Below, in pieces: positions 5,692 to 61,488 of a stretch of DNA of 64,000 nt. The first letter of the stretch is position 1, and every line of letters begins with the position of its first letter. Source of the DNA: Candidatus Micrarchaeota archaeon (GTDB taxonomy: Archaea > Micrarchaeota > Micrarchaeia > Anstonellales > J096); the NCBI GenBank assembly GCA_015523325.1, contig WAKO01000003.1, forward strand, positions 77 through 64,076, given 5' to 3'. The position numbers and the translations under genes were made by a program. The notes under the pieces were generated by a model that saw nothing but the letters and a program-made list of their open reading frames with translations, was not told the origin of the DNA and searched no databases.

Positions 5692-5787
5692 GCAGGGGTC
5701 GCCCAGTGGTCAACGGCGCCGGACTCAAGATAGGATAAGAAATCCGGTCCCTTAGTGGGTTCGTGGGTTCGAATCCCACCCCCTGCA
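5692..5787 (+). tRNA. tRNA-Leu (anticodon CAA) with a ~12-nt anticodon-loop intron
   Basis: Same body as the 868-951 tRNA (D-arm, variable arm, T-arm and acceptor identical). Anticodon stem CCGGA...TCCGG. Loop CTCAAGA after removal of the insert (A)TAGGATAAGAA at the canonical 37/38 position. Confidence 0.7.
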
Positions 5788-7065: not shown

Positions 7066-7193
7066 AGTTATAAACTAAGAGTTATATTAGCTAATCAATT
7101 GGTTTTGATTTTTTATTCGTACTTACCTTTAAGATAAGCTAGGCCTTTATGATAGGTAGAGATTATTGGTGTTATTTAAATGGAGGTGTAAAG

Positions 7194-12504: not shown

Positions 12505-12663
12505 AATATTAATTTAATGTGAATATTTGTGTTTAAAAATGTTTGTTTTCTTTTCTTAACCACTCTTTTCAACCCTCCCATCCCTTACCTTTTAATTGGT
12601 TTTTATAGTAATAATTTTGTGTGTGTTTTAAGAAGAGAGTCTCCATCACAAGAAAAAAACTTA

Positions 12664-14058
12664 ATGAGAGATTTGGAGAGAGGAATTAGGATTTCTCTGA
12701 ATCCTCAAAACTGGAATAAAAAAAGAAGAGGAAGGATGGAAAGAGCATTTCAGAATTTAAAAAAGTCTGGATATTTGAGAGAAAGAAGGAAATGGGTTAT
12801 TTCCTTTAATAAGTCAAAAGCGTTGGGAATAAAGGGATGGAGTAATGTTGTTCTAAAAGTTAGAAATTCCCTTCCTTTAGAAGCTGTAGGAGATTTTTTG
12901 GAAGAATTACCTACCCTTTTTCCTTTACTTATAACTTTGAGGGAAATGGTTCCAACAAATATTATAAGAGATTATAGACCTTCCTTACAATATAAAGCTT
13001 GGGAGTACATTTTAGATAATGTTCCTATAAATGCAGTTGTCTCAACAGATAGGTTTAGCTCCTTTGGCTTTTCTCAAATGCTTGCCTCTACTTATGATGG
13101 TTTAAGGAGAGCTTTTGGAAAGGAGTTGTTAAGTGAGAGTTATGAGGAATGTGTTTCTCCTCTCTGCCAAGTTAAGGCTCTTTACCTTTTGGTTTATACT
13201 GATTTGAGGAATGCTTACTTCTTTTTTAAGAAGACAAGCCCTAAAAAATTCCAAAAAATTTGGGATTCTTCCTCTAAAGAAGAGAAAAGAGAGTTTGTCG
13301 TTTTTTTAGGAGCCTTACTTGTAAATACTGGATGGACTAGGAAAGTTAGGCAAAATGTGATTGCTCCTGCATTAAAAAACTCTAATAGCTTAAAGGAATT
13401 AATGGCTGAGATTGCTGTTAGGGCGAATAGGATTATGAAGAATAATGATAGTGGAGATTATGCTTTAGACGTTTTGAAGTTTTATAGGTATTTAAGAAAT
13501 AGGGTTAGTCCTTCTTTGCTCTCTCCAGCTTTCTCTGAAAGTGTTAGGGAAACCCAACCCTTGGAGGAAATGGATAGTTTTGTTTATGCTGGAAGGCTTA
13601 AAAAAGTGAGGAGGAAGAGTAAAAGAACTGGAAATGAATATGATTGTTATATCTTTACAATAAATAGTGATGAAGAAGAATATGAAAGCTTTTGGAATTT
13701 TAACATGATTAGGGCTTTGCTTAGAGATCCTACTCCTGAGGATTTAGATGAAAATTATGATTTAGTGCTTGGTTTTAATGGATTGAAGGATGTTACAAAG
13801 GAAGAGATGGAAAGGGTTGGGGGGATAGTTGCTATTCCTGAGCATTTGTTTGATAAAGAAGGGATAGGAGAGGAGTTTGTTGTTGTTGAGGGAAAATGGG
13901 ATAGTTATGGAGATATAGTAAAAAAATATATAGATGACAACCCTTCCTCTAGCAATTCTATTAGATATCGTGCAATACTCTATGCTTTTAACAACTCCAA
14001 GAAAGCCTCAGAGCTAACAAGGGTTAGAATTCCCTTAAAGCTGTTGAGAAGAGAGTAG
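12664..14058 (+). CDS. Hypothetical protein (~465 aa) upstream of the ribonucleotide reductase
   Basis: Long ORF. The ORF-track start at 12529 gives a hydrophobic low-complexity N-terminus, so the internal Met at 12664 is more plausible. The start is uncertain. Confidence 0.45.
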   Translation: MRDLERGIRISLNPQNWNKKRRGRMERAFQNLKKSGYLRERRKWVISFNKSKALGIKGWSNVVLKVRNSLPLEAVGDFLEELPTLFPLLITLREMVPTNIIRDYRPSLQYKAWEYILDNVPINAVVSTDRFSSFGFSQMLASTYDGLRRAFGKELLSESYEECVSPLCQVKALYLLVYTDLRNAYFFFKKTSPKKFQKIWDSSSKEEKREFVVFLGALLVNTGWTRKVRQNVIAPALKNSNSLKELMAEIAVRANRIMKNNDSGDYALDVLKFYRYLRNRVSPSLLSPAFSESVRETQPLEEMDSFVYAGRLKKVRRKSKRTGNEYDCYIFTINSDEEEYESFWNFNMIRALLRDPTPEDLDENYDLVLGFNGLKDVTKEEMERVGGIVAIPEHLFDKEGIGEEFVVVEGKWDSYGDIVKKYIDDNPSSSNSIRYRAILYAFNNSKKASELTRVRIPLKLLRRE

Positions 14059-24700: not shown

Positions 24701-26016
24701 ATGATAACTACTCTTTAGTTATAGAAGCTAATTTCACAACAAGGGTTAGGGTTCCATTTATTTATGATTTAGATGGAGATGGCTCTAATGAGTGGGTTTT
24801 TGATGATAATAATAATTATAATCCTGATGCTGATAGCTTTGTTGATTATGGAGATCCAACTCCTTCAGTCTTAATTTATAACAGCACTACTCTAACCTCT
24901 TCTTCTAAAAGAGGATTCTTAATAGATACTAATGGAGATAACCTTCCAGATAAGTTTTGGGATCCTACTTTTTATGGAAATCAAAGTGGTTTGGTTACAA
25001 ATGTAAATCAAACAGATTCAAACAATGATGGTGTTTTGGATTTCTTGATAGATAATGATGGAGATGGTATTTATGAGAGGGTTTTTGATGGAAAAAGGGA
25101 TTATGAACTTCCTGATTTGGTTATGGAGGCTATAAACGTTTATCCTAAGTTTAGCTCAAAGAGGATTAACATAACAATAAATGTTACAGTAAACAATTCA
25201 GGAGGCTTTAATGCAAGTAATTTTGAAGTGGGGCTTTATGTTAATGGAAATTATATATCAAACCAATCTGTTGCATTTTTGGGGGCTGGAGATAAAATAA
25301 ACTTGACTTTCTTATATGAGAATTCTTTTAGAGGTAATTCTACTGTTCTTGTTAGGGCAGACATCTTAAATGTTATTTATGAAAGTAATGACACAAGGCA
25401 GGGTTGGAACCTCTCTAATAACCAAATAAGTGATTGGTTTTACTCCAATCTATCTCATTGGGCTTATATTTATGGAAAGATAAACACTTCTCTAATATTA
25501 TCTGATTCTACCAATGTTTTTTATAAGTGGATTTGGAATGGAACAGGAAATGTTTATGTTGTTCCTCAAAACTCTTTTCCTTCTCTCTCCTCTTTAGTTG
25601 CTTTAGGAAGAACCCCTTCTTTAACTCCTTCTCTTTCTGATTTTGATGAGTTTGATAGCTTAGTTGGGCTTTCTGGATATAGTGATAGCTCAAGAAATCT
25701 CTATACAATTGGGGATGGTTCAACACCAAAGGAAACTCTAAATATTACTTTCTTTGATTACACCATTTATTACTCTCCAATCTATAATAGCTCTGACTAC
25801 TACACTGAATTTGTTACAGCTATAGCTTGGGATAGTAGTGATGACACAAACGGAGAATTTGATATTTCTGATAATGAAGATGTTGTATTAATATCACCTA
25901 TAAAATTAAATTCTACTGGAAGTTTTGGCGTTTATGATTATGAGATTAGAGTCCCAGAGTTTTTTGATACTTATAAAGGAGGTAGTTATGTTGAGATCTG
26001 GATGGAGATTAGATAG
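18757..26016 (+). CDS. Giant (2,419 aa) secreted or surface protein with parallel beta-helix repeats, dockerin/EF-hand-like Ca-binding repeats and a CARDB-like domain. Heavily N-glycosylation-sequon rich.
   Basis: N-terminal signal/anchor. Extreme N/S/T content with hundreds of N-x-S/T sequons. Beta-helix-type repeats (NSS.FN.S.GIYLYN.SNS). DxDGDG Ca-binding motifs near 24,770-25,100. A CARDB-like segment near the C-terminus. No C-terminal TM. Confidence 0.8.
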   Translation: MRRMVMQILSFFNLNGEKASINSSLFYIFLFSLYLLLISPSFSLILTTCSNISYSGNYSLGQNISISLNSSQACFSIEAPNVYFDCNGNSVTSTSPYSGFAFSLLNVSNVTLKNCRASLFNASLILINSSSNYLSANSLINNTYGLYFSSSPFNQVNDTNSSLNSIGIFLDSSSPSNLIFNNFFSNTINVQANSASFWNTSKVISKNILGGAFIGGNFYSNYSGFDGDGDGIGESPYLFNNGVDFLPLTTNLSLNNCFYAGYDNFVYNINFSMNLNKSDGACITVLGENVSIYCNGFDLVGNALESEQLKGILVLSNNFSLFDCSVINYSYGLFAENVSSLRVENSSFFNSSFGIYLYNVSNSLLENNSLIGFYQDYVGDQDYSIFSFASSFESSNVINSSFIGIYANSSSISSKDIFYNCSSSCFILVNSTANLSSFSYSSTTYANFSSSNITLRDFAVGFSNEFGIINWSYVGLSQLLLQEGKNIRLERDFVSLNSSDPLASPLNKSANVTLFIEYCTYDIYKKVGFPLYKLDVLENGSVYEDVPSCAFNKARFEADSFSGFAAGVSLNSWWNCSFAYRIVYEINNSFANVSGAILSIYINHSIYPSYLFKENGEDIRVVDKNLQEVPFYISYFNVNSTTLIYAKINTTFNSTEYLYVYFGNEEASSKSNLSAVFDSVLEVGRIILPAQTYAGQWVLNVSFNNTIQNPVLVLGPDVTYSGVQEFYPRVRNLTPYGFEIRQQEPSNRDDIHISETLYYFAMPQGVYLTEDGKLIEGRTQILSIAKNGRGQPPTTSLIYFTLPLNNPIVVSSVVDFSSTNYVHTRQRNIQSTSFELYLEPEENQNAGSVSPSLVSWIALENSSGSWDGKLYETSLLTTNQNFGVLSFLNNYSYPAVVASMQTLNGGDSAVLRGRNLQSNSVELRVQEDTTRDAETNHVNEVIGVFVFEEGVYPLRPYTPNISINESFANITKRVNLTYPNTGLKVDKGEEFTVSCEIKANECFGCSTSGFTYLQFFNGSDWITANSTTLLSTPLNGISTTLSCPSSQTVNFTAKINELNQTLRIRCLTTSSSNASYRSNQVVVIAPYYEIEITNPENYEIVYKGSSVPINVKELFGKDDIIYVNISIDGVNYTAIEIFPDVWEYVWNIPPTQPEGFVKIIAYAFNSTSLVATKEIEVYVREQVVCEWVNTTFKYKIAALIRNTENYDIGEVMVPLTLKDLNFSLFQPNGEDLYIVDLNNNEIPFWIEQWNFNNQSIVWVRLNFTGGETKIINIYFGNESGVVPLSNRTNTFFRPFGKPYYVAFHASLSGALNLTSYVDNNYLVSSSLNQIVNEKQVVATSFNKGELINSTYPIASTITQNAGDSVIPIAFAGTTFVYPFGARTGSTDSFSFYAVFNDSFVEVFSDGTLVNSVNVPQGSWVTITADIANNQNAIIKASSPIIAYHDGGNRDSVIMVPASTELYGISSSAFVSALQDNTLVTIYDSSGAVYSTILSSNGFFNIGGGGSQGTGVAVRLVADKPIGAIQRADGDGVEESTFLPLSELDNYYVLPTTAEYVAIACPYPTAIDIYSPSGVLITTLNCNALPPNPGKAYYSATNLVAGTSLNSSLPFYLYYESIHPGENSGGETNILSFKQFRGYTSPLAVYVGKVENRTSDLEVLPFILPTEKKEFEDINFSSIIVNNRVATPSPFNVSFIVEFNSINYTIDKVEVPSLACGANVSLNFSLNHSNLAGGVGIKKLIVFADEDNVVNEVDENNNIYSRDVSYSKALLTTCRNALAVNRNITKGAILTLRAIDDSIYPIYNVSLSYSPSSPPLPSSCVLFSPSFFSSIPALGYYNYSFIVNVSCAPIGTSLGLIKLDGLDYYQDHNLSQEVCQISLTKDSNGVVVGSSLIDFSVVEPFSYNQINFTIQNNDEGNITNLSFTFSNMLANPSSNIIPSSSLSYISVLPIENGSSKDQLISINLSNTMPGLYLGNANSSFYFNDNYSLVIEANFTTRVRVPFIYDLDGDGSNEWVFDDNNNYNPDADSFVDYGDPTPSVLIYNSTTLTSSSKRGFLIDTNGDNLPDKFWDPTFYGNQSGLVTNVNQTDSNNDGVLDFLIDNDGDGIYERVFDGKRDYELPDLVMEAINVYPKFSSKRINITINVTVNNSGGFNASNFEVGLYVNGNYISNQSVAFLGAGDKINLTFLYENSFRGNSTVLVRADILNVIYESNDTRQGWNLSNNQISDWFYSNLSHWAYIYGKINTSLILSDSTNVFYKWIWNGTGNVYVVPQNSFPSLSSLVALGRTPSLTPSLSDFDEFDSLVGLSGYSDSSRNLYTIGDGSTPKETLNITFFDYTIYYSPIYNSSDYYTEFVTAIAWDSSDDTNGEFDISDNEDVVLISPIKLNSTGSFGVYDYEIRVPEFFDTYKGGSYVEIWMEIR

Positions 26017-26102: not shown

Positions 26103-27761
26103 ATGAGAATTTCTATTCTTGTTTTGATTTTGTTTCTTATTTCCTATTCGTTCTCAGTTATTATAGTTAACTCCTATGATGGGAGAGATGTGGTTGTTGG
26201 AACGTATTATGCAGCTGCTTTAGGAGAGGAGGTGTTTTTTGTTCCTCAAGAAAGCTCAGTAGAGATGGTAACTTCAAAGATAGGGGGGTTTGACGAGGAA
26301 GTTGTGTTAATAGAAGGAAAGAGAAAGGTTTTTCCAGGGCTTGAGCTTTCTTTAAGGAATAGAGGATATAAAATAAAGGAGATAATTAACTCTTCTGATC
26401 CTTATACACTAAACTTTGAATTAGCTTCAAGAGTAAATCCAAATGGTTTTGTTATAGCTTCTCCTGATTTTGGTTATAATACTGTTGCCCCTATTCCTTT
26501 TGCTAGAAAAAATAGGTATTTTTTTATATTTGATATAGAAGGAAAAGAGCAGGAAATTGCTTCTATTGTTGATTCAAAGCCTGTATTGGTTTATGGAGAT
26601 GTGAGAGAAGAGCTACTAGAAAAACTTAGTGAGAATCCAAATTTAATTGTAATAAATAATGGAGATAAGTATTTGGATAGTATTGAATTAGCAGACCTTC
26701 TTTTAGAGGGCCAGAAAAACACCCAAGTTATTCTTTCTGATGGGAACTTTTTGGAGAGTACAATAATGAATAGTCCCTATCCAATAGTTTATGTCTCAAC
26801 ACTAACTCCTAGGGTTGTTATTGATTTTTTATACAATAAAACATTATCAAACCAAATAAGTACTTTATTAGTTGTTGGAGAAGAATACACTAATGTTGCA
26901 TATAATATAAGGAGAGAGATAAATGAGAAGATTGGAGAGGATAGATTAAGCACTTTTGTAAAGCTAGGAGAAGCAATTCCTCCTCTTTCCCAACCTGTCC
27001 CTTCCCCTATTTTTCCACTTCCTTCTCCTTTTTCTTCTATTGTTGTAGAAGAGGTTGTGTTTAATAATAATACCAATACTTTAACAATATCATTTAGAAA
27101 TAAAGGAAATAGTATTGGTTACTTTACTTATTCAATAACTGTTTATGATGAGAATAATAATGCTTTATTCACTTTTTCTTCTGATGAAATTTTAGAGTTA
27201 AAAGAAGGGGATAGCTATGTTTTTAGGAAGCAGTTGGATTTAGGAAATTTAGAAGGATATTTGGAAGCAGATGTTAGAGTTGAGTATGGAACCTCTAAAA
27301 CATTACTTGATAATGGTTATGTAGAGAGGTTTGTATTGACTTTTCTTTCGCTAGAGGAGAAAACATCTTTGGTAATAGAGGATGCAAAATATGATAAAGA
27401 AAGTAAGACTTTGACACTCTCTCTTAGAAACACAGGGGAGGTGGATGCTTTCTATAAGGTTTTTCTTTACTACAAAGACAAGGATGGTAAAGATGTAGAG
27501 GTTGAAGAACAACTTTCTGTTATAGAGGCAGGAAGAAATAGAATTATTTTGTTGAGAGGAGTTGATCTACCTTATTCAGATATTTTAATAGAAGTTAAGT
27601 ATGGTTATAAGGAGAACTTGTTAGTTAAAAGTGCTTACTATACGTTAAGAATTGAAGAGGAAGATCTACTTAAGACTATTGCTGTGATTGTTTTAATTAT
27701 TTATGTAATAGTTCTTCTTAAGAAGCTGTTAATGCTAAAAACTAAAAAAGTAGAAAAATGA
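26103..27761 (+). CDS. Surface protein: N-terminal signal, cell-wall-binding-like N-domain, two CARDB-like domains, C-terminal TM anchor with basic tail
   Basis: CARDB-like repeats (LTISFRNKGNSIGY, LTLSLRNTGEVDA). C-terminal TM helix IAVIVLIIYVIVLL followed by KKLLMLKTKK. Confidence 0.65.
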   Translation: MRISILVLILFLISYSFSVIIVNSYDGRDVVVGTYYAAALGEEVFFVPQESSVEMVTSKIGGFDEEVVLIEGKRKVFPGLELSLRNRGYKIKEIINSSDPYTLNFELASRVNPNGFVIASPDFGYNTVAPIPFARKNRYFFIFDIEGKEQEIASIVDSKPVLVYGDVREELLEKLSENPNLIVINNGDKYLDSIELADLLLEGQKNTQVILSDGNFLESTIMNSPYPIVYVSTLTPRVVIDFLYNKTLSNQISTLLVVGEEYTNVAYNIRREINEKIGEDRLSTFVKLGEAIPPLSQPVPSPIFPLPSPFSSIVVEEVVFNNNTNTLTISFRNKGNSIGYFTYSITVYDENNNALFTFSSDEILELKEGDSYVFRKQLDLGNLEGYLEADVRVEYGTSKTLLDNGYVERFVLTFLSLEEKTSLVIEDAKYDKESKTLTLSLRNTGEVDAFYKVFLYYKDKDGKDVEVEEQLSVIEAGRNRIILLRGVDLPYSDILIEVKYGYKENLLVKSAYYTLRIEEEDLLKTIAVIVLIIYVIVLLKKLLMLKTKKVEK

Positions 27762-27815: not shown

Positions 27816-29132
27816 ATGGATTTTGATTATAAGAAAGCAGAAGAAGTAATAGAAAGGGCAAAAGCTCTATTTTCTCCTTCAAAAGAGGAAAGAGAGGAGC
27901 TCCTTTCTATGTTTGAGAGTTTTAGAGTTGAGCTTTCCCCATACTTTAAAGATATCAGGTTGTTGGGAAGTGTTGCAAAAGGTACTTTTTTGAAAGGAAG
28001 TAAAGAGTTAGATGTTTTTGTTTTTTTTGATAAGGATGTGAGTAAGGAGGAAATGGGGGAAAAGATATTTCAGGTTTTGAGGAAATTAAACATAAACTTT
28101 GAGATTAGATATGCAGAGCATCCCTATGCAAAGGTATTTTATAAGGGCTTTGAAATAGATTTAGTTCCTTGTTACAAAATAAAGCAAGAGGAAAGGATAA
28201 GAAGTGCTGTTGATAGAAGCCCTTTTCATTATGAGTTTGTCTCAAAAAATCTAAAAGAACATCAAAAAGCAGATGTCAGGGTTTTAAAAAAACTCCTGAA
28301 AAATTTTGGATTGTATGGAGCTGAAGTAGGAGTAAGAGGATTTTCAGGATACTTATGTGAGCTCTTAATAATTTATTATGGAAGCCTCTTAGAGCTAATG
28401 AAATCTTCCTTAAAGTGGAAAAGGCCAAAACTTTCTCTAAATAAAGAAACAACTTTAGATTTGTTTGATGAGCCTTTTGTTTTCATAGACCCAACTGATG
28501 AATATAGGAATGTTGCTTCTTCCCTATCTTTAGAAAACCTTTCAAAGTTTATTCTCCTCTCTTCTTCATTTTTGAGGTCACCATCCTTAGAGTTCTTTGA
28601 GTTTTCATCCTTAGATTTGAGCTTTAGCAAATTAAAGGAAGTTTTGGGAGAAGCTGTTGTTGTTAAACTTAAATCCCCTGATGTTGTTAGAGAAACCAAG
28701 ATGGGTCAACTTAAGAGGATTGAGAGGTATTTGAAAAGCTTTTTGATAAAAAATGGTTTTCTTATTTCATCGAGCTTTGTTGAGGATAGGGAGTTTTCTT
28801 ACATATTCATAAGTTCTCTGTTCTCTCCTCCTAATTTTATTATAAAAGAGGGCCCTTTTGTTTGGATGAATAAAAATGCAGAAAACTTTATGGAGAAAAA
28901 CAAAGCTGTTTTGCTTGGAGATAGGCTTTTTACAATAAAGGAATACAAATTTAAAAGGCTTAAAGAAGCTGTTGAAAAGGCTTTGGTTTCTTATGATTTT
29001 CCCTCTCACTATAAAGGGAGTTTGGTTGATGTAATTTCTCTCAATCCTTCCGAGATTGATAAATTGTCGTTAAAAAATAGAATTTTTGTAGAGGTTAGGA
29101 GGAACGAATTTTTGTTTAGAAGAAAAGTTTAG
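27816..29132 (+). CDS. cca: CCA-adding tRNA nucleotidyltransferase, archaeal class I
   Basis: Motifs GSVAKGTFLKGSKELDVFVFF, DRSPFHYEF and GVRGFSGYLCELLIIYY. Consistent with the tRNA genes lacking an encoded CCA. Confidence 0.85.
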   Translation: MDFDYKKAEEVIERAKALFSPSKEEREELLSMFESFRVELSPYFKDIRLLGSVAKGTFLKGSKELDVFVFFDKDVSKEEMGEKIFQVLRKLNINFEIRYAEHPYAKVFYKGFEIDLVPCYKIKQEERIRSAVDRSPFHYEFVSKNLKEHQKADVRVLKKLLKNFGLYGAEVGVRGFSGYLCELLIIYYGSLLELMKSSLKWKRPKLSLNKETTLDLFDEPFVFIDPTDEYRNVASSLSLENLSKFILLSSSFLRSPSLEFFEFSSLDLSFSKLKEVLGEAVVVKLKSPDVVRETKMGQLKRIERYLKSFLIKNGFLISSSFVEDREFSYIFISSLFSPPNFIIKEGPFVWMNKNAENFMEKNKAVLLGDRLFTIKEYKFKRLKEAVEKALVSYDFPSHYKGSLVDVISLNPSEIDKLSLKNRIFVEVRRNEFLFRRKV

Positions 29133-30495: not shown

Positions 30496-31749
30496 ATGCT
30501 AGATATTTCTTTAATAAGAAATAATAAGGAATTTGTTAAAAATGAGCTTTCAAAGAGGTCTTTGAGTTATAAGGAGTTAGTAGACAAGGTTTTTGAACTT
30601 GACTTGGAATGGAGGGCATTAAAGAAAGAACTTGACTCTTTTAGAGCTAAGAAGAATGAAATCTCAAAGCAAATTTCAAAAACAAAAGATGAAGAGTTAA
30701 TTCTTAGAAGTAAAGAGATTGGGAAGAAAATTAAAGAACTAGAGAAAAAAGAAAAGGAGTTGTTAGAAAAAAGAGATTTGCTTTTGTTAGAGCTTCCCAA
30801 TATTCCTTCTCCTTCTTGTCCAATTGGAGAGGGAGAGGAGGAAAACAGAGTTGTTTTTGAAGTTAAACCAAAGAAGCTTAGTGCCATTCCCCATTATGAA
30901 TTAGGGGTTGAAGAAGGAGTTTTGGACTTTGAGAGAGGCTCTTTAATCTCTGGTCATAGGTTTGTTGTGATGAGGAAGTGGTTAGTAAAGTTAAATAGAG
31001 CTTTAATCAATTTTATGTTGGACTTTGCTTCTTCTCATGGATATGAAGAGGTTTGGGTCCCACATTTAGTTAGAAGCTCCTCATTAATAGGGACAGGACA
31101 GTTACCTAAATTTAAGGAAGACTTATATAGAACTCAAGATGACCTTTGGCTAATCCCAACTGCTGAGGTTCCTTTGGTGAATTTAGTTAGGGATAGTTTT
31201 ATTGAGGAAAAGGATTTACCGCTAAGATTTTCTAGCTTTACTCCCTGCTATAGGAGGGAAGCAGGAGCTTATGGAAGAGATATAAAAGGAATTATAAGGC
31301 AACATCAATTTGATAAGGTTGAGTTAGTCTCAATAACATCTCCAGAAGAGAGCTATAAGGAGTTGGAAAGGAAAAGAGGTATTGTTGAAGAACTATTAAA
31401 GAGATTGGAATTACCTTATAGGGTTGTTGAACTTTGTACAGGAGATTTGCCATTTAGCTCAGCAAAAACTTATGATTTGGAGGTTTGGATTCCTTCACAG
31501 AAAAAGTATAGGGAAATCTCCTCAATTAGTAATTGCACTGATTTTCAAGCTAGAAGGATAAAAGCAAGGATTAGGAGAGGAAACGAGCTTATTTATCCCC
31601 ACACATTAAATGGCTCTTCTCTAGCTCTAGGAAGAACCTTAGTCGCTATAATGGAAAACTTTCAGGAAGAGGATGGAATAGCCCTTCCAAGGGCTCTTTG
31701 GGATTACTCAAAAACAGAGTTTATAGAATTCAAGAGAACTTCAAAATAA
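30496..31749 (+). CDS. serS: Seryl-tRNA synthetase
   Basis: N-terminal coiled-coil arm. Class II motifs (FRRE-like CYRREAG, GSSLALGRTLVAIMEN). Confidence 0.9.
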   Translation: MLDISLIRNNKEFVKNELSKRSLSYKELVDKVFELDLEWRALKKELDSFRAKKNEISKQISKTKDEELILRSKEIGKKIKELEKKEKELLEKRDLLLLELPNIPSPSCPIGEGEEENRVVFEVKPKKLSAIPHYELGVEEGVLDFERGSLISGHRFVVMRKWLVKLNRALINFMLDFASSHGYEEVWVPHLVRSSSLIGTGQLPKFKEDLYRTQDDLWLIPTAEVPLVNLVRDSFIEEKDLPLRFSSFTPCYRREAGAYGRDIKGIIRQHQFDKVELVSITSPEESYKELERKRGIVEELLKRLELPYRVVELCTGDLPFSSAKTYDLEVWIPSQKKYREISSISNCTDFQARRIKARIRRGNELIYPHTLNGSSLALGRTLVAIMENFQEEDGIALPRALWDYSKTEFIEFKRTSK

Positions 31750-35391: not shown

Positions 35392-38175
35392 TTAGCTTTT
35401 TCTTATTTTAACTTCAACTTCTTCTCCCTCTATTTTCCATTTCTTAGTTAGTCCTTCACTAACTTTTCCTTCTTTTCCATTAACTCTCTTAAGCAATTCT
35501 ACTTTGTATTTTTCTATGACTTCTTTTATCTTTCCTTTAGCTTTTATCTCTAGGATTATTTCATCTCTTTCAATTAGTTTTAGCTCTTTTCTTGTGGCTT
35601 GGATTCTCCTTACTACTTCATTTAATAGCCCCTCTTCCTTTAGCTCTTCACTTAATTCTTTTGGTATTCCCACCACTAATCCTTCTAGCTCTTCTTTAAT
35701 TAATCCCTCCCCAACTTCTCCAACTTCAATTGCTTTTGAGTTTGTTAATAATTTTAATGCCCTCTCATATCTTAAAGGTTTATTAACCACTACTTTTTCA
35801 ATAGGCCACCTTAATTTTATTCCTAGCTCATTTCTTAGCTTTAATACAGCAGACACAACTTCTTTTATCTCTTCCATCTCATCTTTTTCCATGTCTTTTC
35901 CTTCTCCTAGCTCAAACATGTGAATACTCTCTTCTCCTTCAAACTTTCTGAAGAACTTTTGGTAAACATACTCGGAAGTGTAGGGAGTTATGATAGCAAA
36001 CATCTTTAGCATTTCAAAAACTATATGGTAAAGGAGAGCTTTTGTTTCTTCTTGCCTTTTTTTTGCTATTTTCATGTAAAATTGGCTTAAATCCTCAATA
36101 AGCAGCTTTCTTAATTCCCTAACTCCTTCAAAAGGTTTGAGTTCTTTCATTGATTTATTAAATTTGTATATTGTTTCTTCTAACCTATCCATTATCCACT
36201 TATCTTCTTCTTTTAACTCTCCCAGTTTTTCTCTTTTTGCCCCAACCCTCTCCAAGTAAGAGGCCAGATTTATTAGCACATTTAGATCTCTTGAGGCTAG
36301 CCTTAAATCATCCCAGACAAATTTAACTTCTTCCCATGTTGTTGAACTAGCTCCCCATAGCCTAAATGAATCTGCTCCTACCTTACTTAATATTTCTTCA
36401 ACAGGAACAAAGTTTCCAATGCTCTTGCTCATTTTCTCTCCTTTTTCGTCAACAAAAAATCCATGCATAAGTAATCTTTTGTAAGGAGAGCTCCCATTCC
36501 TTACCATGCCACTTCCCAATAAGGAGTAGAACCATCCTCTTATTTGGTCTTGTCCTTCAAATATCAAGTCAGCTTTGTTTCCCCAATATTCCTCTTCTTC
36601 TTTTGTTAGAGGAGCCCACACAGCATTTCCAGAATCAAACCAAACATCTAACACATCCTTAACTCTCTCCATCTTTTCTCCGCAATGACATTCCAACACT
36701 ACCTCATCAACATAAGGCCTATGCAATTCTTTAACTTCTTTTCCCAATTCTTTTTTGCTCCCAACTACTTTCAAGTGACCTTTTTTACATTTCCAAATTG
36801 GTAAAGGAATCCCCCAATACCTTTGCCTACTTATACACCAATCAGGGGCCTCTTTAACAAATGATGAGAACCTTTCTTTAACAAAGCTTGGAGAGAACTC
36901 TATGTTATCTATTTCCTTTAACATTTCTTCCTTTAGCTTTGTTATTTTTATGAACCATTGTTTTGTAACTAAATAAATTAGAGGTGTTTTACATCTCCAA
37001 CATATAGGATAGCGGTGCCTTATTTTTTCTTTTAACACAAGATTTCCTTTTTCTTCTAGAAGCTTTATTATTTCCTCATTAGCTTCCCTTACATTTTTTC
37101 CCTTAAATTCTCCTCCAAGTTCATTATAATCTCCATTTTCATTTACAGGAGAATAAATTGGAATGTTATTTTCTTTTCCTACTAAGTAATCTTGAGGACC
37201 ATGTGCTGGAGCCATATGCACAAGTCCAGTTCCTTCCTCAACTCCAACAAACTCCTCACTCAGTACTACTTTTCTTTCAAATTCTATTCTTATTTTTTCC
37301 TGGAAAGGATGTTCATAGTTAATTCCCTTCAATTCTTTTCCTGGAATTTCCCTTAATACAGAATAACTTTTATCTAGCTTTTCCATAACTTCTTCAACAA
37401 GTTCTTTTGCTATTATCCATCTCTCTCCTTCCACTTCAATCTCTACATAATTAACATTTGGATTAACCATAACCCCCATATTCCCTATTAATGTCCAAGG
37501 TGTTGTTGTCCATATTATTAGGTAAAGATTGTCTTCTCCCTTTACTTTAAATTTCACATATACGCTTGGATCTGTTAGCTCTTTGTATTCAAGCTCATAA
37601 TTTGCTAGAGAGGTTTCACATCTAAAGCAATAAGGAACTACATAATCCCCTTCTTCAAGCAAATTTTTTTCAAATGCTCTCTTAAAGGTCTCCCAAGATC
37701 TTTCAATATAATTGTCATAATAAGTAACATATGGATTTTCCCAATCCATCCAAACTCCAAAAGCTTTCATTTGTTTTGTCATTATCTCAATGTATTTGTC
37801 TACAAACTCTTTGCATTTTTTTATGAATACATCTATTCCTAGCTTTTCAATCTCGTGTTTTTTGTTTATTTTTAGGAGTTTTTCTACTTTAACCTCTATA
37901 GGCAATCCATGAGTATCAAATCCTGGTTGGTCTCTTACATCAAATCCCTTAGCCCTATAATATCTTATGTAGATATCTTTCATTACTTTGTTCCAAGCTG
38001 TTCCTGGATGTATTTCTCCTGTTGCAAAAGGCGGCCCATCAACAAAAAAGAACTTTTTTTTATTTTTTAACCCTCTTTTTTTTGTTAGCTCTTTTACTTT
38101 TTCATATATTTTGTTCTTCTCCCAAAACTCTTCTATTTCTTTTTCTATTTTTTTGAAATCATACATTTTTACCAC
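35392..38175 (-). CDS. ileS: Isoleucyl-tRNA synthetase
   Basis: Class I. HIGH-region variant EIHPGTAW. GFDTHGLPIE. WCISRQRYWGIPLPIW. KMSKS. Confidence 0.85.
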   Translation of the reverse strand: MVKMYDFKKIEKEIEEFWEKNKIYEKVKELTKKRGLKNKKKFFFVDGPPFATGEIHPGTAWNKVMKDIYIRYYRAKGFDVRDQPGFDTHGLPIEVKVEKLLKINKKHEIEKLGIDVFIKKCKEFVDKYIEIMTKQMKAFGVWMDWENPYVTYYDNYIERSWETFKRAFEKNLLEEGDYVVPYCFRCETSLANYELEYKELTDPSVYVKFKVKGEDNLYLIIWTTTPWTLIGNMGVMVNPNVNYVEIEVEGERWIIAKELVEEVMEKLDKSYSVLREIPGKELKGINYEHPFQEKIRIEFERKVVLSEEFVGVEEGTGLVHMAPAHGPQDYLVGKENNIPIYSPVNENGDYNELGGEFKGKNVREANEEIIKLLEEKGNLVLKEKIRHRYPICWRCKTPLIYLVTKQWFIKITKLKEEMLKEIDNIEFSPSFVKERFSSFVKEAPDWCISRQRYWGIPLPIWKCKKGHLKVVGSKKELGKEVKELHRPYVDEVVLECHCGEKMERVKDVLDVWFDSGNAVWAPLTKEEEEYWGNKADLIFEGQDQIRGWFYSLLGSGMVRNGSSPYKRLLMHGFFVDEKGEKMSKSIGNFVPVEEILSKVGADSFRLWGASSTTWEEVKFVWDDLRLASRDLNVLINLASYLERVGAKREKLGELKEEDKWIMDRLEETIYKFNKSMKELKPFEGVRELRKLLIEDLSQFYMKIAKKRQEETKALLYHIVFEMLKMFAIITPYTSEYVYQKFFRKFEGEESIHMFELGEGKDMEKDEMEEIKEVVSAVLKLRNELGIKLRWPIEKVVVNKPLRYERALKLLTNSKAIEVGEVGEGLIKEELEGLVVGIPKELSEELKEEGLLNEVVRRIQATRKELKLIERDEIILEIKAKGKIKEVIEKYKVELLKRVNGKEGKVSEGLTKKWKIEGEEVEVKIRKS

Positions 38176-43027: not shown

Positions 43028-43858
43028 GTGTATTCAAGAAGGCTAATTGTAATTATATTATTTATCCTGTTCTTTGTTAAACTCCAGTTCTCTGAATTTA
43101 TAATAACTAAGAATGAGATAACAATTAATATAGATAGAGAAGGAAATGCTCAAGTGGTGGAGAGGGTAATGATTTCTATAAGTGGAAGGGGATCTATTTC
43201 TAGTTATGTTAAGGCTTTAGAAAACCCAACTTTGGCGGATTGGCAAAAGTTGCTAGGAGAGGATGTGAGAGTTCATTTAAACCCCAGTGTTGTTAAAATA
43301 GAGGATTTAACAGTTAGACCTCAACCTCTCTATGATTATAATGCTTTGTATGACACTGCAAAAGGAGAAATAATAATAAAGTATAGGGCTATTCCTTATG
43401 ATAATAGCTCTGGTTTATTTGAGCTTGTGAATGTTAAACCTAGAACTTATAGGCTAATTTTAAATGAAGAAGCCCTATCTTTTAAGAGGAGCGTTATAGG
43501 AAACTTGGTAATAGATAAAAAAACAATTCTAAAATTCATTCCTCCAAAAGGAGCAAAGCTTATTGACATTAATCCTATTCCAGAGGAATTAAGGGAAGAG
43601 AAGTTTCCAATTTATATTGAGAGTGTTGAGTGGAATGATGTTGTTTTAGTAGAGCCTGTTTTAGTTTTTGAGTATGAGGAAACAATTGGAGAAGAGATTT
43701 ATAGATTTTTTGAAGAATACAGCTATCAACTCATTAATTTCTTCACAACCCCAGAGGGAATATTTGTTGTTTTGTTCTTTGTTCTTCTATCATTATTTTA
43801 CTCTAAACTCAACTATTCTTTGACATTGCTTAGGAGGAGAGGTAAAAATGTTAAGTAA
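43028..43858 (+). CDS. Hypothetical protein with N- and C-terminal TM helices
   Basis: Signal/anchor at the N-terminus and a TM helix near the C-terminus. Precedes and overlaps pheS. Confidence 0.4.
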   Translation: MYSRRLIVIILFILFFVKLQFSEFIITKNEITINIDREGNAQVVERVMISISGRGSISSYVKALENPTLADWQKLLGEDVRVHLNPSVVKIEDLTVRPQPLYDYNALYDTAKGEIIIKYRAIPYDNSSGLFELVNVKPRTYRLILNEEALSFKRSVIGNLVIDKKTILKFIPPKGAKLIDINPIPEELREEKFPIYIESVEWNDVVLVEPVLVFEYEETIGEEIYRFFEEYSYQLINFFTTPEGIFVVLFFVLLSLFYSKLNYSLTLLRRRGKNVK

Positions 43859-45263
43859 AAATGAGAAAGTTATACTTAAAGAACTTAAAAAAGAGAGAAG
43901 CCTGGATTTGGAAAGCTTAATGAAGAGGACTGGTTTAGGAAAAGATGCTATAAAGAGAGGAGGTTACTTTTTATCTCAAAAGGGATTGGCTAAGATGAAT
44001 TATAGGAAGGAGAATTTGTTTAGCTTAACTCATAAAGGAAAGGAGGTATTGCTTAAGGGATTTGAGGAAGAGAGCATAGATAACTTGAGTGTTAAAGACT
44101 TGCCTGAAGAAGTTAGAGAGAGGTTATGGATTGCTAGGGAAACTTCTTTCTTTTCAATAGAAAAAGGAGTGGTTAGGAAAAATAAGGACAAGTTTATATT
44201 AAGAGAAGTTTTAGAGGCAATTTCATCAAATACTTTAGAAGAAGGTAAGTACAGCAAATACCTTCCTTATTTGGAAAAAAAGGGATTGATTAAAAAAATT
44301 GAAGAGGAGAAGATTAGTTTTGAGATAACTCCTGAGGGAGAAGCTTATGTTTTAGAGGAAAAAGAGGGATTAGATGAGCTTAGTGAGGAGGTTATTAAAA
44401 GTCTAGATTGGAAGAAAAAAGAGTTTAAGCCATACTACATAGATTACTCTTCTATAAAAAAAGCTACATCTGGAAAACTGCATCCCTTTACTTTAGCAAT
44501 TAACAAAATAAGAAGTGTTTTTCTTTCTCTTGGTTTTAAGGAGTTGCAAGGAGATTATGTGGAGAGCTCTTTTTGGGTTTTTGATGCCCTCTTTCAACCT
44601 CAAGACCACCCTTCCAGGGAGTTGGCTGATACGTTCTTTTTGAATAAAAAGGAAAGAGTGGATGTTGATGATATAACTTTAAATAGAGTTAAAGAAGAAC
44701 ATCAAAGGTATTGGAAATATCCTTGGAAAAAGGAGATTGCAGAAAAGCTTGTTCTTAGAACACACACGACAGTTTTAAGTGCTAGAGCCCTCTATGAATT
44801 CAAAAAGGGGAAGTTCTTTGCTATTGGAAGAGTATTTAGGAATGAAGCAATTGATTATAAGCATTTAGCAGAGTTTCATCAAATAGAAGGAATCATAGCT
44901 TGGAGAGGGGCAAATTTCAGAAACCTTTTGTGGATTTTAAAGAAGTTTTTCACTAAGCTTGGCTTTGAGAAAATAAGGTTTAGACCAAGCTATTTCCCTT
45001 ACACAGAACCCAGCTTAGAGGTAGAATATTATTTTGAGGAAAAAAATGAGTGGATGGAGATCGGAGGAGCAGGAATTTTTAGAAAACAAGTTTCCTCTCC
45101 TCTGTTGGCAGAGTATCCTGTTTTAGCTTGGGGATTAAGCTTAGAGAGATTGTTAATGCTTATATTGGATTTAAGTGATATCAGAGAGTTTTATAAAAAT
45201 AAAAAACCTTGGTTAGATAACATATCATCAAATAAAATTAAGAGGATAGAGATAAAGGGTTAG
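43848..45263 (+). CDS. pheS: Phenylalanyl-tRNA synthetase alpha subunit (archaeal type, with N-terminal winged-helix domains)
   Basis: Class II motifs (HPSRELADTFF, FRNEAIDYKHLAEFHQIEG, GAGIFR). Confidence 0.9.
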   Translation: MLSKNEKVILKELKKERSLDLESLMKRTGLGKDAIKRGGYFLSQKGLAKMNYRKENLFSLTHKGKEVLLKGFEEESIDNLSVKDLPEEVRERLWIARETSFFSIEKGVVRKNKDKFILREVLEAISSNTLEEGKYSKYLPYLEKKGLIKKIEEEKISFEITPEGEAYVLEEKEGLDELSEEVIKSLDWKKKEFKPYYIDYSSIKKATSGKLHPFTLAINKIRSVFLSLGFKELQGDYVESSFWVFDALFQPQDHPSRELADTFFLNKKERVDVDDITLNRVKEEHQRYWKYPWKKEIAEKLVLRTHTTVLSARALYEFKKGKFFAIGRVFRNEAIDYKHLAEFHQIEGIIAWRGANFRNLLWILKKFFTKLGFEKIRFRPSYFPYTEPSLEVEYYFEEKNEWMEIGGAGIFRKQVSSPLLAEYPVLAWGLSLERLLMLILDLSDIREFYKNKKPWLDNISSNKIKRIEIKG

Positions 45264-55513: not shown

Positions 55514-56902
55514 TCATACTTCAACGGCATTTGTAACTTCTTTAATTTTCCTCCTTTTTAGTTTCCCTTCTTTTCCAACTTCCTTTTCCAAAATACTTCC
55601 CTTTTCCTCATCAATACCTTCAATTACTTCAATCACTTCTCTATATGAAGGTTCTTTTAATCTATCTTCAACTTCTTCTCTTTTGCATGATATCAATCTT
55701 CTATATCCTGCTTCTATATAATTAGCTATTTTCTCTATTATTAACTCAAATACCCCTCCAGTGTTAGGATTTACTCTTCCTTCATCTCCTTCTACAAAAT
55801 AAATTGTTTCTATTCTTTCCTTTACCCCATCAAATAGGTTTGAGATTATTGTTTCTAGTGAGTAATAATCCTCATTTCCATTCTCTTCAACATTTTCCAA
55901 GAATTCTTTTATGAATTTCCTTTCTTCTCTCCTTTCATTTAATACATACCCTTCTTTTCTATTCAGCTCTTCCTCTAATATTTTGCTCATGTTCCATAAA
56001 TGAGAGAGCAGAATCAAAGGATATTTTAGGGAAATAAATTCTGCTTTTTCTACAATTTCTAAGAATTCCTTAAGCTTTACTCTAGCTGTAGTTTCTTCTT
56101 CAAAGCCTTCTACTATTAAAGACCTATTTTTTATACGAACTTTTTTTCCTTTATCCTCTAAGCTATACCAAGAGGGGCTGTTATAGTAACCATTATAATT
56201 AAAGAACACTGGAATATAATTGTTGCTTTTCATTGTTATTTTTTCATGAATCCTTTTTACCTTATTTTTGAAACGCTTTGGTTCATTAGTGAGTAGGGGA
56301 AAAATTACATCTAAAACATTTTCCTTATTTATTATGCTTGGAGAAGGGGCCTCTACAAAATTTACTCTTGGAACTTCTACTTTTTTATTATAGTTAATAA
56401 CATACTCTATAAGCCTGTACGAGGCTTCCCTATCAAAAACCCTCATTGGAGTTCCAGGAGGAATTTGTGAGTAAATCTCCCAACCATCTCCTAAATTTTC
56501 ATTCAATCCCATAAAAACTTCAAGTTGATGGGAAACCAATTCTGAATTCTTTATTCCTTTTCCTCTAGCGCCTTCTTGTATATCTCTTTTAATTGGCATT
56601 ACTTTTTTCCACTCTTCAAATATTTCATTACATTTCTTTTTTTTGTTTTTACTTAAAAACTCTACAAAGCTTGAAGGAAGATTATACTCATAGGTTGAAA
56701 CTAAACTATCAATTACTGGGATTATAATAACTTCTTTTCTAGCTTCTTTTAATTTTGAATAAAGAAGAGAGGAATGTATTAGGTTTAATGCTGGAGAATC
56801 AATAAAGACTCTTTCTTTTTCTTCATATTTATATTTAAATAGGCTCCATGCTCCTCTTCCTTCACATATTATGACATTAACCTTATTTGTTCTTTGTTTC
56901 AT
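55514..56902 (-). CDS. Hypothetical protein (462 aa)
   Basis: Long ORF with coding-like composition. No recognised motif. Confidence 0.45.
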   Translation of the reverse strand: MKQRTNKVNVIICEGRGAWSLFKYKYEEKERVFIDSPALNLIHSSLLYSKLKEARKEVIIIPVIDSLVSTYEYNLPSSFVEFLSKNKKKKCNEIFEEWKKVMPIKRDIQEGARGKGIKNSELVSHQLEVFMGLNENLGDGWEIYSQIPPGTPMRVFDREASYRLIEYVINYNKKVEVPRVNFVEAPSPSIINKENVLDVIFPLLTNEPKRFKNKVKRIHEKITMKSNNYIPVFFNYNGYYNSPSWYSLEDKGKKVRIKNRSLIVEGFEEETTARVKLKEFLEIVEKAEFISLKYPLILLSHLWNMSKILEEELNRKEGYVLNERREERKFIKEFLENVEENGNEDYYSLETIISNLFDGVKERIETIYFVEGDEGRVNPNTGGVFELIIEKIANYIEAGYRRLISCKREEVEDRLKEPSYREVIEVIEGIDEEKGSILEKEVGKEGKLKRRKIKEVTNAVEV

Positions 56903-58731: not shown

Positions 58732-58975
58732 TTTTTTTGATTTTATTTGATTGGATTACTAATAGGGATAGCTTGTGTAAACACACTAACCACTAGATAG
58801 TTTTTAAACTTTTGTTACTGAATTTAGTGGATTACTTTTATAAATTTAGGATTTAAAACCTAGGTGTTATGAGTAATGAGATTGAAGAAGGAAAAAGTTA
58901 TCTAATAGTTCTTTTCAATAACTTAATCTTATATTCCAAATTTACTATAGAATAAGGGATTATAAAAAATAAGAT

Positions 58976-59076
58976 TGGGCCCGGTGGGATTTGAACCCAC
59001 GACCTACGGCTATCTTAGAATCCATTAGAGCGGGTCTTATAAGACCGTCGCTCTAACCTGGCTGAGCTACGGGCCC
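58976..59076 (-). tRNA. tRNA-Ile with predicted UAU anticodon and a ~26-nt anticodon-loop intron
   Basis: Reverse complement reads GGGCCCGTAGCTCAGCCAGGTTAGAGC-G-ACGGT-CTTATA[A-GACCCGCTCTAATGGATTCTAAGAT]A-GCCGT-AGGTC-GTGGGTTCAAATCCCAC-CGGGCCC-A. The archaeal tRNA-Ile-like acceptor/D-arm GGGCCCGTAGCTCAG is present. Spliced loop CTTATAA. Confidence 0.65.
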
Positions 59077-59098: not shown

Positions 59099-59113
59099 GG
59101 TAAAATTTAAAAA
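59099..59113 (-). promoter_or_regulatory. TATA-like box ~27 nt upstream of tRNA-Ile 5-prime end
   Basis: The minus-strand sequence reads TTTTTAAATTTTA, centred ~27 nt before the mature 5-prime end. Confidence 0.35.
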
Positions 59114-59256: not shown

Positions 59257-60579
59257 ATGAAAGAAAAATTAGAACACATAAAGTTTGATGTTAAAAATAA
59301 GAGATTTATTTCTGAAGGAAAAGGAGAGCTCCTAAGGAAAGTTAAACCTCAAATATTTGAAGAAGGTTTAATTAGGATAGATAACTTTAGAGACTCCTTG
59401 GTTAAAATAAACAATAGAGTAAATAACCAACTAAAGGGTTTATCTCACAAAAACACAAGGGAGTTGGCACTTTTTTTAGCTTTTCTGAATGTTGAGACCT
59501 CAACAGATATTTCTTTGGTTTTCAATGATGGCAGGAATGGAAAGAATATAAGCAAAGAACTTTATCCATACTCGACCATAACTTTCTCTTCTGTTGATGA
59601 GCTAGTTTTAGTTTTGTTAAACCCTTACTTAAACAAAAGGGTTAGAAATGTCTTATTTTTACAACCAGGAAATCTAGAATCCCCAAACCCTGATTTATCA
59701 TTTATGGTGTTAAAAAGAAACGAGTTTTTGAATAGATTTTATAGGATGGGATTTAGAGTTGAAGGTCCAATTCTATTTTTAGATAAAAGAAAAGTTCCTT
59801 TCTTTTCAGGAGTTTTAGCTAAAGGAGAGATTTTTATTGTTGATGAAAAAGAGCTCTACCCATTAAATAATAAGGATTTAAATCTCTATTTTAAAGAAAC
59901 TAGGAAGAGCTTTCTCCTCCTCCAACAGCTTAGAAGGTTTAAAGTTAGAAAGCTGAGTTGTGCAGAGTGTTTTTCCTCCCATTCTCTACTTTCAACCACT
60001 TTTTTTGGTTATCCTGATAAAGAGCTTTTAAGAGAGTTCCTAAAACAAGATTTTTCAATAGGGATTGTGGAATTTCATTACCCTTGCAATTTTATTAGAA
60101 CCTCTTTAGATTTTCATGAGATGTTCTTTAAGATTAGGGATAGTTCAGTAATGAAGGCTATTCTCTCTCAACTTTCATCTTTTTTAAGAGGAGGACTAAT
60201 AGCACTCCATAATTCTTATTTTGATTCAACTTCCTTAAAAACAGATAATCCTCTATTCTTGAGAACATTTAGAGACAACCCTGTTGAGTATCAACCACTG
60301 CTTAGAGCTCTGTTAAATAAGGGGTTGTTAAAGGTAGGAAAGCTAAAGAACTTTAATGGAGGAAAAGAAGCAATATTTTTTGAGGAGGCTGAGGAGGTTC
60401 TAAAAACAACTATTAAATGCCTAACCAGAGAGGAAATGGAGTTAGCTGTTATGGAGAGAATTGCTTTTAAAACTGCTTTGATTTTGAAGGAGCTACTAAA
60501 TGAGCTGCTTGAAGAGGGTCATTTATATCTAAAGGAGAGAGAGTTATTTATCTTAGTTAGAGGGTGTGAAAAAGAATGA
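59257..60579 (+). CDS. Hypothetical protein (440 aa)
   Basis: Long ORF with an AGGAGG-like RBS. Confidence 0.5.
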   Translation: MKEKLEHIKFDVKNKRFISEGKGELLRKVKPQIFEEGLIRIDNFRDSLVKINNRVNNQLKGLSHKNTRELALFLAFLNVETSTDISLVFNDGRNGKNISKELYPYSTITFSSVDELVLVLLNPYLNKRVRNVLFLQPGNLESPNPDLSFMVLKRNEFLNRFYRMGFRVEGPILFLDKRKVPFFSGVLAKGEIFIVDEKELYPLNNKDLNLYFKETRKSFLLLQQLRRFKVRKLSCAECFSSHSLLSTTFFGYPDKELLREFLKQDFSIGIVEFHYPCNFIRTSLDFHEMFFKIRDSSVMKAILSQLSSFLRGGLIALHNSYFDSTSLKTDNPLFLRTFRDNPVEYQPLLRALLNKGLLKVGKLKNFNGGKEAIFFEEAEEVLKTTIKCLTREEMELAVMERIAFKTALILKELLNELLEEGHLYLKERELFILVRGCEKE

Positions 60580-60651: not shown

Positions 60652-61488
60652 GTGGGAGACTCTGTGGAAAAATCTAAGAGCAAAAAAAGAGGAGGAACAA
60701 TTTTATCTATCACTTTTGATGGCAAAAGAACAACTCTCGTGTTAAAAGGAAAATTTCTGGCTTTTGAGCTAGGGGATTTATTTATTTTGGTAAGAAAGGG
60801 CAGTGGTTCTCTAAGATTAATTGCTCCATTAGAAAATAAAGAAAGTAGAAAAGAAAAAAGAGAGGAAGAAGTTATTTTTCAAGGAGAAGGAAAAACACAG
60901 CAAACTTCTAAAAGAGCAGGTAAGCCTTACCCTTCCGAGAGCTTGGAGGATTTGGAGGAAAAAGAGTTTGATGTGCTAAACAAGGTTTCTTTAATTCCTT
61001 TTTCGAGAAGAGATTTAAGAAGCGTTTTACTAGAACTTTCTTCAGAAGAGAGAAAAATACTGAAAAGCTTAGCTTCTAGAGGTTTTTTTAAGTTATATGA
61101 AAAAGATGGGAAAATATTCCTTTCTTTTGATGAAAGAGTTTATGAGAAACTTAAGGATTTAAGTAAAATAAAGAGGGAAAACAAAAACTTTATTAGTAAT
61201 GATTTCATGATAGTGGCTCCCGCTTTTGTTAAAAAGTATCTTGCAGAAATTGATAATAGCTTTGTGTTTACCATTGATGCAAAAGGAATTTTATTTGCGG
61301 TTAAAAGAGACAGAGCTAAACAGTTGTATAAAAAAGTAACTTCCATCCTTAAAAAAGGAGAGCTTTCTTTGGAGGAGATAGCAGCAAAGCTAAACCTTAA
61401 GAAAGAAGAGGCCCTCGCAGTTTTAAAATTAATGGGAGAAGAAGGTATTATTTATGAACCTTCTCCAAATAGGTATAGCTTAGCTTAA
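60652..61488 (+). CDS. Hypothetical protein with C-terminal winged-helix domain
   Basis: C-terminal wHTH-like segment LSLEEIAAKLNLKKEEALAVLKLMGEEGIIYE. Basic N-terminus. Confidence 0.45.
   Translation: MGDSVEKSKSKKRGGTILSITFDGKRTTLVLKGKFLAFELGDLFILVRKGSGSLRLIAPLENKESRKEKREEEVIFQGEGKTQQTSKRAGKPYPSESLEDLEEKEFDVLNKVSLIPFSRRDLRSVLLELSSEERKILKSLASRGFFKLYEKDGKIFLSFDERVYEKLKDLSKIKRENKNFISNDFMIVAPAFVKKYLAEIDNSFVFTIDAKGILFAVKRDRAKQLYKKVTSILKKGELSLEEIAAKLNLKKEEALAVLKLMGEEGIIYEPSPNRYSLA

Follow-up and report, generated by a model that had tools for sequence, protein, structure and literature searches.

What does the interrupted tRNA gene on the minus strand at 58976-59076 decode, and does the archaeon that carries it read the isoleucine codon AUA with a genome-encoded UAU anticodon instead of with TiaS and tRNA-Ile2(CAU)? 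The gene lies in the 64,000-nt stretch of DNA analysed here (the window), which comes from a metagenome scaffold of 270,707 bp (ENA ERZ23495365, REYS20-1_SAMN12239301_METAG-scaffold_5). The Rfam model RF00005 matched the locus over its full length, from model position 1 to 71 of 71, and placed a 27-nt insertion inside the anticodon loop; the match scored 63.1 bits, where the gathering score is 29, with E = 2.5e-11. ARAGORN in default mode reported only one tRNA in the window and did not report this one; with introns allowed, it returned tRNA-Ile (tat) i(40,26) at c[58976,59076]. Because the default run gave no report of it, this tRNA-Ile(UAU) gene is easily overlooked in annotation.

Read directly on the minus strand, the 101-nt gene (75 nt when spliced) runs from the 5' exon GGGCCCGUAGCUCAGCCAGGUUAGAGCGACGGUCUUAUA through the intron AGACCCGCUCUAAUGGAUUCUAAGAU to the 3' exon AGCCGUAGGUCGUGGGUUCAAAUCCCACCGGGCCCA. 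The 5' exon (59038-59076, tRNA positions 1-37, by direct reading and from the evaluated cloverleaf with its bulge-helix-bulge, or BHB, motif) contains the acceptor strand GGGCCCG, the D-arm GCUC/GAGC, the 5' strand of the anticodon stem, ACGGU, and the loop nucleotides CUUAUA, with the anticodon U34 A35 U36 at 59039-59041 (TAT on the minus strand; Rfam, ARAGORN and direct reading agree). The 26-nt intron (59012-59037, from the BHB register) sits at the canonical position 37/38. The 3' exon (58976-59011, positions 38-73, by direct reading and Rfam) supplies A38, the 3' strand of the anticodon stem, GCCGU, the variable loop AGGUC, the T-arm GUGGG-UUCAAAU-CCCAC and the 3' strand of the acceptor, and ends in the discriminator A73; CCA is not encoded by the gene. 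Spliced, the loop reads CUUAUAA (C32 U33 U34 A35 U36 A37 A38) on the stem ACGGU/GCCGU. The initial annotation had described this acceptor and D-arm, this stem and loop and an insert of about 26 nt, and Rfam, ARAGORN and direct reading show each of these, together with the coordinates and the strand, to be exact; the spliced UAU anticodon with U33 and A37 that it proposed is borne out by the intron mode of ARAGORN and by the BHB register. The locus is a real intron-containing tRNA gene with a UAU anticodon and what appears to be an Ile-type body, and its isoleucine identity rests on the anticodon, on that body and on orthology. Direct reading also placed an A/T-rich, TATA-box-like element, TTTTTAAATTTTA (59101-59113, minus strand), 25-37 nt upstream of the mature 5' end, which would be the archaeal promoter of the gene, and a T6 run (58964-58969, minus strand) 7 nt downstream of the discriminator, a putative terminator, oligo-T being a known archaeal termination signal.

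Related genes turned out to be numerous. A pattern scan for Ile-type tRNAs with a UAU loop, run over one genome per GTDB species, gave at least 120 loci (L003-L122), and among the matches listed ARAGORN confirmed tRNA-Ile(tat) in about 100 of them. An intron-specific pattern run over JGI metagenomes likewise gave at least 120 loci, and the two scans together gave at least 79 distinct intron-containing pre-tRNA-Ile(UAU) sequences. Judged by record title, at least 43 of the loci among the matches listed are archaeal, nearly all of them from DPANN groups (Micr-, Woese-, Iain-, Aenigmat- and Pacearchaeota, and Nanopusillaceae). The non-archaeal matches listed come mostly from CPR/Patescibacteria (Saccharibacteria, Peribacteria, Uhr-, Doudna- and Magasanikbacteria, and others), and they also include some Ignavibacteria and MAGs labelled Gammaproteobacteria. 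These distributions suggest that tRNA-Ile(UAU) is widespread in CPR bacteria too, for which our literature search found no published statement. The initial annotation had called a genome-encoded tRNA-Ile(UAU) rare, citing Nanoarchaeota and Korarchaeota only; since each scan is full of UAU genes, from DPANN and CPR alike, and the examples from ARMAN, of the Micrarchaeota/Parvarchaeota, were published in 2011, that description is outdated.

What defines an archaeal intron is a bulge-helix-bulge motif, not its sequence. At the intron of tRNA-Ile(UAU) we found a strict hBHBh' motif with its cuts at 37/38, made up of helix h (ACGGU/GCCGU, 5 bp), the 3' bulge AU|A, a 4-bp central helix CUUA/UAAG, formed by C32-A35 and the UAAG close to the intron's 3' end, the 5' bulge UA|A, and an outer helix h' of at least 2 bp (G-C, A-U); the two bulges are of 3 nt each, U36-A37|A and A-U|A38. 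The boundary of an intron is unreadable from DNA alone, and here there is an A at both junctions, so that the cut can slide by 1 nt in the 3' direction, although the mature sequence would be identical. Removal in some other register, leaving CAU, GAU or yet another anticodon, is nevertheless hardly credible. Two 3-nt bulges and a 4-bp helix beside the anticodon stem are available in one register only, CAU and GAU are excluded because any other boundary fails to produce a 7-nt loop in which U33 is present and position 37 is a purine, and no 7-nt loop closed by ACGGU/GCCGU has C or G at position 34. Moreover, all four pairs of the central helix, in the same register and with the bulges in the same place, are present in 15 of 19 intron-containing archaeal copies (the window copy counted), where G-U variants of the helix (UGGG, UGAG, UAGG) occur; the register is also shared by homologs in the set of at least 79 distinct intron-containing sequences, and intron-less orthologs, such as that of a Micrarchaeota MAG (L017), have the identical CUUAUAA loop. 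The alternative registers are ruled out by the geometry of the BHB.

We also considered whether the intron could be a box C/D guide (compare haloarchaeal pre-tRNA-Trp) and rejected this, as direct reading of the 26 nt found neither a C box (RUGAUGA) nor a D box (CUGA). A 160-aa gene with a weak, precomputed match to PF01974 (tRNA intron endonuclease) lies about 8.4 kb upstream of the window, where its last 98 nt were read (L123:1-98; scaffold about 191,309-191,406), and may encode the splicing enzyme of tRNA-Ile(UAU).

The intron is also complementary to the exon that precedes it. The first 13 nt of the intron (AGACC CGCUCUAA) read as the reverse complement of nt 20a-33 of the exon (UUAGAGCG-AC-GGUCU), a segment that reaches from the D-loop and the 3' strand of the D-stem through the 5' strand of the anticodon stem. 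Together with exon nt 20a-37 they occupy 59025-59056 (minus strand), and the DNA there is palindromic about the anticodon, TTA|TAA. Because of this complementarity, the unconstrained minimum free energy (MFE) fold predicted for the pre-tRNA (-43.5 kcal/mol) is not a cloverleaf (-36.3 kcal/mol with the BHB) but a long hairpin, in which the D-arm is unfolded and U34-A37 are presented as a tetraloop, and the correct folding needed for splicing is therefore assumed, not predicted. The intron-exon duplex, at -20.1 kcal/mol, compares with -9.4 +/- 2.7 for shuffled introns, one of 300 being as good.

Similar complementarity (z of -1.8 or below) was seen in 8 of the 19 archaeal copies, the window copy included, and in the larger set the D-loop and the 3' strand of the D-stem are matched by a block of the gene's own intron in many introns of 22-40 nt. 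The D-arm and intron blocks pair as UUAGAGCG/CGCUCUAA, GUCAGAG/GUCUGAC and GGCAGAG/CUCUGCC, and as GGCAGAG/CUCUGUC in L128 against GGUAGAG/CUCUAUC in L233; the differences between DPANN copies look compensatory. For the D-arm segment alone, 16 of 79 introns had z < -1.64, where about four were expected. An intron-swap test was not significant over all 79 introns (p = 0.09) and gave p = 0.03 in the 22-32-nt class only. Among other isotypes, 3 of 22 had D-arm complementarity, all of them tRNA-Arg(UCG) (Mann-Whitney p = 0.14). Given this similar rate in other isotypes and the overall swap result, the idea that the complementarity is specific to Ile(UAU) is unsupported, and a tie to the UAU anticodon is likewise not supported.

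We consider it distinctly improbable that the alternative precursor fold is selected, for example because it licenses an intron-dependent modification of U34 and U36 that limits misreading of AUG, or because it orders maturation. Eukaryotic tRNA-Ile(UAU), which is alike in its UAU anticodon, in its 37/38 intron and in reading AUA without a modified C, reportedly has intron-dependent pseudouridines at 34 and 36 (Pus1; the work is that of Szweykowska-Kulinska and colleagues, 1994). In contrast, among the matches listed, 18 of the 29 parsed archaeal UAU genes have a 37/38 intron, of 13-79 nt, and 11 are intron-less, the closest relative (L017) among them, a count that speaks against an obligatory role of the intron. 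More mundane origins, such as shared intron ancestry or an inverted duplication, at the palindromic UUAUAA loop, that gave rise to the intron, may account for the complementarity.

How much work such a tRNA has to do can be judged from the codons around it. In the 48 window ORFs of at least 150 aa, AUA makes up 773 of 1481 Ile codons (52%) and, at 41.8 per 1000 codons, is the commonest Ile codon and the fifth commonest codon of all. It is formally possible that AUA has been reassigned, for instance to Met as in some mitochondria, and that the tRNA is not an Ile acceptor, but the probability of this is negligible: AUA positions in IleRS and PheRS-alpha correspond to Ile (56% and 35%, respectively), Val and Leu in homologs, which is the profile of the AUU positions in the same two proteins, the AUG positions align with Met, and the body of the tRNA appears to be of Ile type. 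AUA in the window is an ordinary Ile codon in heavy use, and the tRNA that decodes it must therefore be abundant and essential; the codon's share of Ile codons, together with the Ile, Val and Leu found opposite it in homologs, implies a heavy decoding load on tRNA-Ile(UAU).

The window is rich in translation genes, with a Trp/Tyr-type aminoacyl-tRNA synthetase, SerRS, IleRS, PheRS-alpha and a CCA-adding enzyme (4357-5484, 30496-31749, 35392-38175, 43848-45263 and 27816-29132), and HisRS and tRNA-His lie directly upstream of it on the scaffold (L123). Its GC content is about 33%, and that of its tRNAs 56-67%. The IleRS (minus strand, 924-927 aa; NCBIfam TIGR00392 ileS, 851 bits) is of type 2 (archaeal/eukaryote-like), is encoded 21 kb from the tRNA-Ile(UAU) gene and would be the enzyme that has to recognise UAU. 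Its named relatives are 52-54% identical to it and all belong to Candidatus Micrarchaeota, Micrarchaeia, Anstonellales or Bilamarchaeaceae; unnamed ones reach 66%. The named relatives of PheRS-alpha are nearly all from the same Micrarchaeota groups, at about 45-51%. The Micrarchaeota relatives of the IleRS are about 940 aa long. Alignment of the window protein to solved type-2 IleRS structures (PDB) ends near residue 795 of 927, with the C-terminal 130 or so residues unaligned; this region is short, and the corresponding region serves anticodon recognition in other IleRSs. The CCA-adding enzyme (plus strand; Pfam PF09249, PF01909 and PF21133), which has to supply the CCA absent from the tRNA gene, is of the archaeal class I.

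The tRNA itself points to the same relatives. Spliced, it is identical at 71 of 75 positions to the intron-less tRNA-Ile(UAU) of the Micrarchaeota MAG (L017) and at 68-69 of 75 to copies from other Micr- and Woesearchaeota, several of which also have the ACGGU/GCCGU anticodon stem. On these best-hit matches, the named ones being at about 45-54% identity, the host appears to be a deep-branching, low-GC, Micrarchaeota-type DPANN archaeon. A taxonomic clue towards a Nanoarchaeota/DPANN-like organism had been read from the gene at the outset; the DPANN part of it stands, and Nanoarchaeota gives way to a Micrarchaeota-like host, given the named relatives of the IleRS and of PheRS-alpha and the best match of the tRNA.

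The window holds two further tRNA genes, tRNA-Leu(GAG) at 868-951 and tRNA-Leu(CAA) at 5692-5787, both on the plus strand, which differ in the anticodon arm only, their acceptors, D-arms, variable arms and T-arms being the same. The tRNA-Leu(CAA) gene has an intron, of 12 nt by ARAGORN and seen as a 15-nt insertion by Rfam, so that with tRNA-Ile(UAU) two of the three window tRNAs are interrupted. A 2419-aa ORF (18757-26016, plus strand) is also present. At E <= 1e-4, Pfam gave no match for seven ORFs of 278-552 aa (7149-8570, 11003-12199, 12529-14058, 26103-27761, 55514-56902, 59257-60579 and 60652-61488), both genes flanking the tRNA region included, and for 55514-56902, 59257-60579 and 60652-61488 there was no NCBIfam match either. 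Neighbours of this kind, together with a precursor whose predicted MFE fold is not a cloverleaf, are what one might expect of a pseudogene or of a tRNA on an integrated element or virus. Against such a non-functional or foreign copy, which we regard as very unlikely, are the high Rfam score with every stem intact, the 71 of 75 identities to orthologs in other lineages with changes in stems compensated, the housekeeping neighbours (thiolase, peroxiredoxin, aminoacyl-tRNA synthetases), and the use of AUA as the main Ile codon, which makes a decoder indispensable where no second one was found in the region.

If tRNA-Ile(UAU) is the AUA decoder, is it the only one? We inspected about 79 kb of the scaffold (191,309-270,707), that is the window and one step on each side of it, from a genome of probably about 1 Mb. 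No CAU tRNA was found there, the tRNAs present being His(GUG), Leu(GAG), the intron-containing Leu(CAA) and Ile(UAU). Over the same 79 kb, no match to the TiaS family was found in the 28 window ORFs scanned (a 156-aa peroxiredoxin and otherwise ORFs of 272 aa or more; the 2419-aa ORF was left out) or in the precomputed Pfam lists of the flanks. This result is compatible with replacement of the agmatidine system and far from decisive. A search of the literature on TiaS in DPANN archaea found no paper, and among the matches listed GAU or CAU tRNAs adjoin UAU tRNAs in bacterial loci only, which is uninformative on archaea.

TiaS and tRNA-Ile2(CAU) could thus be encoded elsewhere in the genome, with the UAU tRNA as an extra reader of AUA. 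The inspected portion is limited to the 79 kb, and some bacteria have both an LAU and a UAU decoder, which is described as an evolutionary intermediate (Taniguchi et al., PMC3575796). On the other hand, the literature that we searched reports no archaeon with both decoders, neither gene was seen within the portion inspected, and published members of the phylum, ARMAN-2, -4 and -5, have tRNA-Ile(UAU) and lack TiaS and tRNA-Ile(CAU), according to Fujishima et al. 2011 (PMC3239211). We consider a redundant decoder unlikely; that this organism lacks the agmatidine system would follow from the ARMAN precedent in the phylum.

Taken as a whole, the evidence suggests that the gene very probably encodes a functional AUA-decoding tRNA-Ile(UAU) (sometimes called Ile3) of a Micrarchaeota-type DPANN archaeon and most likely replaces tRNA-Ile2(CAU) and TiaS. 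Transcription would probably start from the A/T-rich box about 25-37 nt upstream and end at the T6 run. The archaeal splicing endonuclease would then cut the two 3-nt bulges to release the 26-nt intron from position 37/38, after which the exons would be joined by an RNA ligase; the motif is observed, and the enzymology is suggested by the published in vitro splicing of the ARMAN-2 precursor. CCA would be added by the window-encoded enzyme, the type-2 IleRS would probably charge the tRNA with isoleucine, and the UAU anticodon would pair with AUA, which the window uses more than any other Ile codon. Within this lineage, it would most likely be this tRNA that stands in for tRNA-Ile2(CAU) and TiaS/agmatidine, as published for ARMAN, Nanoarchaeum equitans and Korarchaeum cryptofilum. 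Avoidance of AUG by U34 could depend on a modification of U34 or on co-adaptation of tRNA and ribosome as in Mycoplasma mobile.

The importance of the gene is mostly for annotation: it marks the scaffold as DPANN, and annotators should expect AUA to be decoded in this organism by a genome-encoded UAU tRNA and not through agmatidine. More generally, to have a tRNA-Ile(UAU) is the normal condition in much of DPANN and CPR. The question of U34 and AUG has been known since 2010-2014, and the window gene makes it no more testable than do the ARMAN, Nanoarchaeum and Korarchaeum examples.

Comparison with known systems brings out what is shared and what differs. A Haloarcula tRNA-Ile substituted to have U34 (present as cnm5U) binds AUA > AUG > AUU and misreads AUG (PMC3895270), which means that the decoding fidelity of a tRNA-Ile(UAU) needs some adaptation. 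Mycoplasma mobile and other TilS-less bacteria parallel the replacement proposed for the window host, a UAU anticodon standing in for a system based on a modified C34, and in M. mobile, where U34 is unmodified, adaptation of the tRNA, IleRS and ribosome limits misreading of AUG (Taniguchi et al. 2013, PMC3575796). Unlike the window gene, M. mobile tRNA-Ile2(UAU) is bacterial and intron-less, and its bacterial-type IleRS relies on Arg865 in a Zn-binding C-terminal domain, whereas the C-terminal region of the window IleRS, which is of type 2, is non-homologous and unaligned to solved structures. Also comparable are N. equitans and K. cryptofilum, TiaS-less archaea in which a genome-encoded tRNA-Ile(UAU) reads AUA in place of TiaS and tRNA-Ile2(CAU), the gene of K. 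cryptofilum also having an intron (PMC6000648, PMC8450103). Both belong to other phyla than the window host, and the UAU gene of K. cryptofilum looks like a recent derivative of its resident tRNA-Ile(GAU).

The nearest published system is that of ARMAN-2 (Candidatus Micrarchaeum acidiphilum) and ARMAN-4 and -5, which are of the same superphylum and apparently of the same phylum, and which share the UAU anticodon, the 37/38 intron and the strict hBHBh' motif. The ARMAN-2 precursor, compared here by its published description, has a 37/38 intron of 25 nt, against 26 nt in the window gene, and was spliced in vitro (PMC3239211). The host of the window gene differs in being a separate deep-branching lineage with 33% GC and GC-rich tRNAs, which shares about 45-54% identity with named Micrarchaeota in its IleRS and PheRS-alpha. 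The splicing endonuclease may differ as well, ARMAN-2 having a three-unit epsilon2 enzyme and the scaffold a 160-aa candidate with a weak PF01974 match, which is much smaller and not obviously epsilon2. Replacement of TiaS and tRNA-Ile(CAU) is published for ARMAN and would apply to the window host by extension. Set beside these genes, the window gene is another ordinary example of an arrangement published for the phylum in 2011, and will be no surprise to the specialist.
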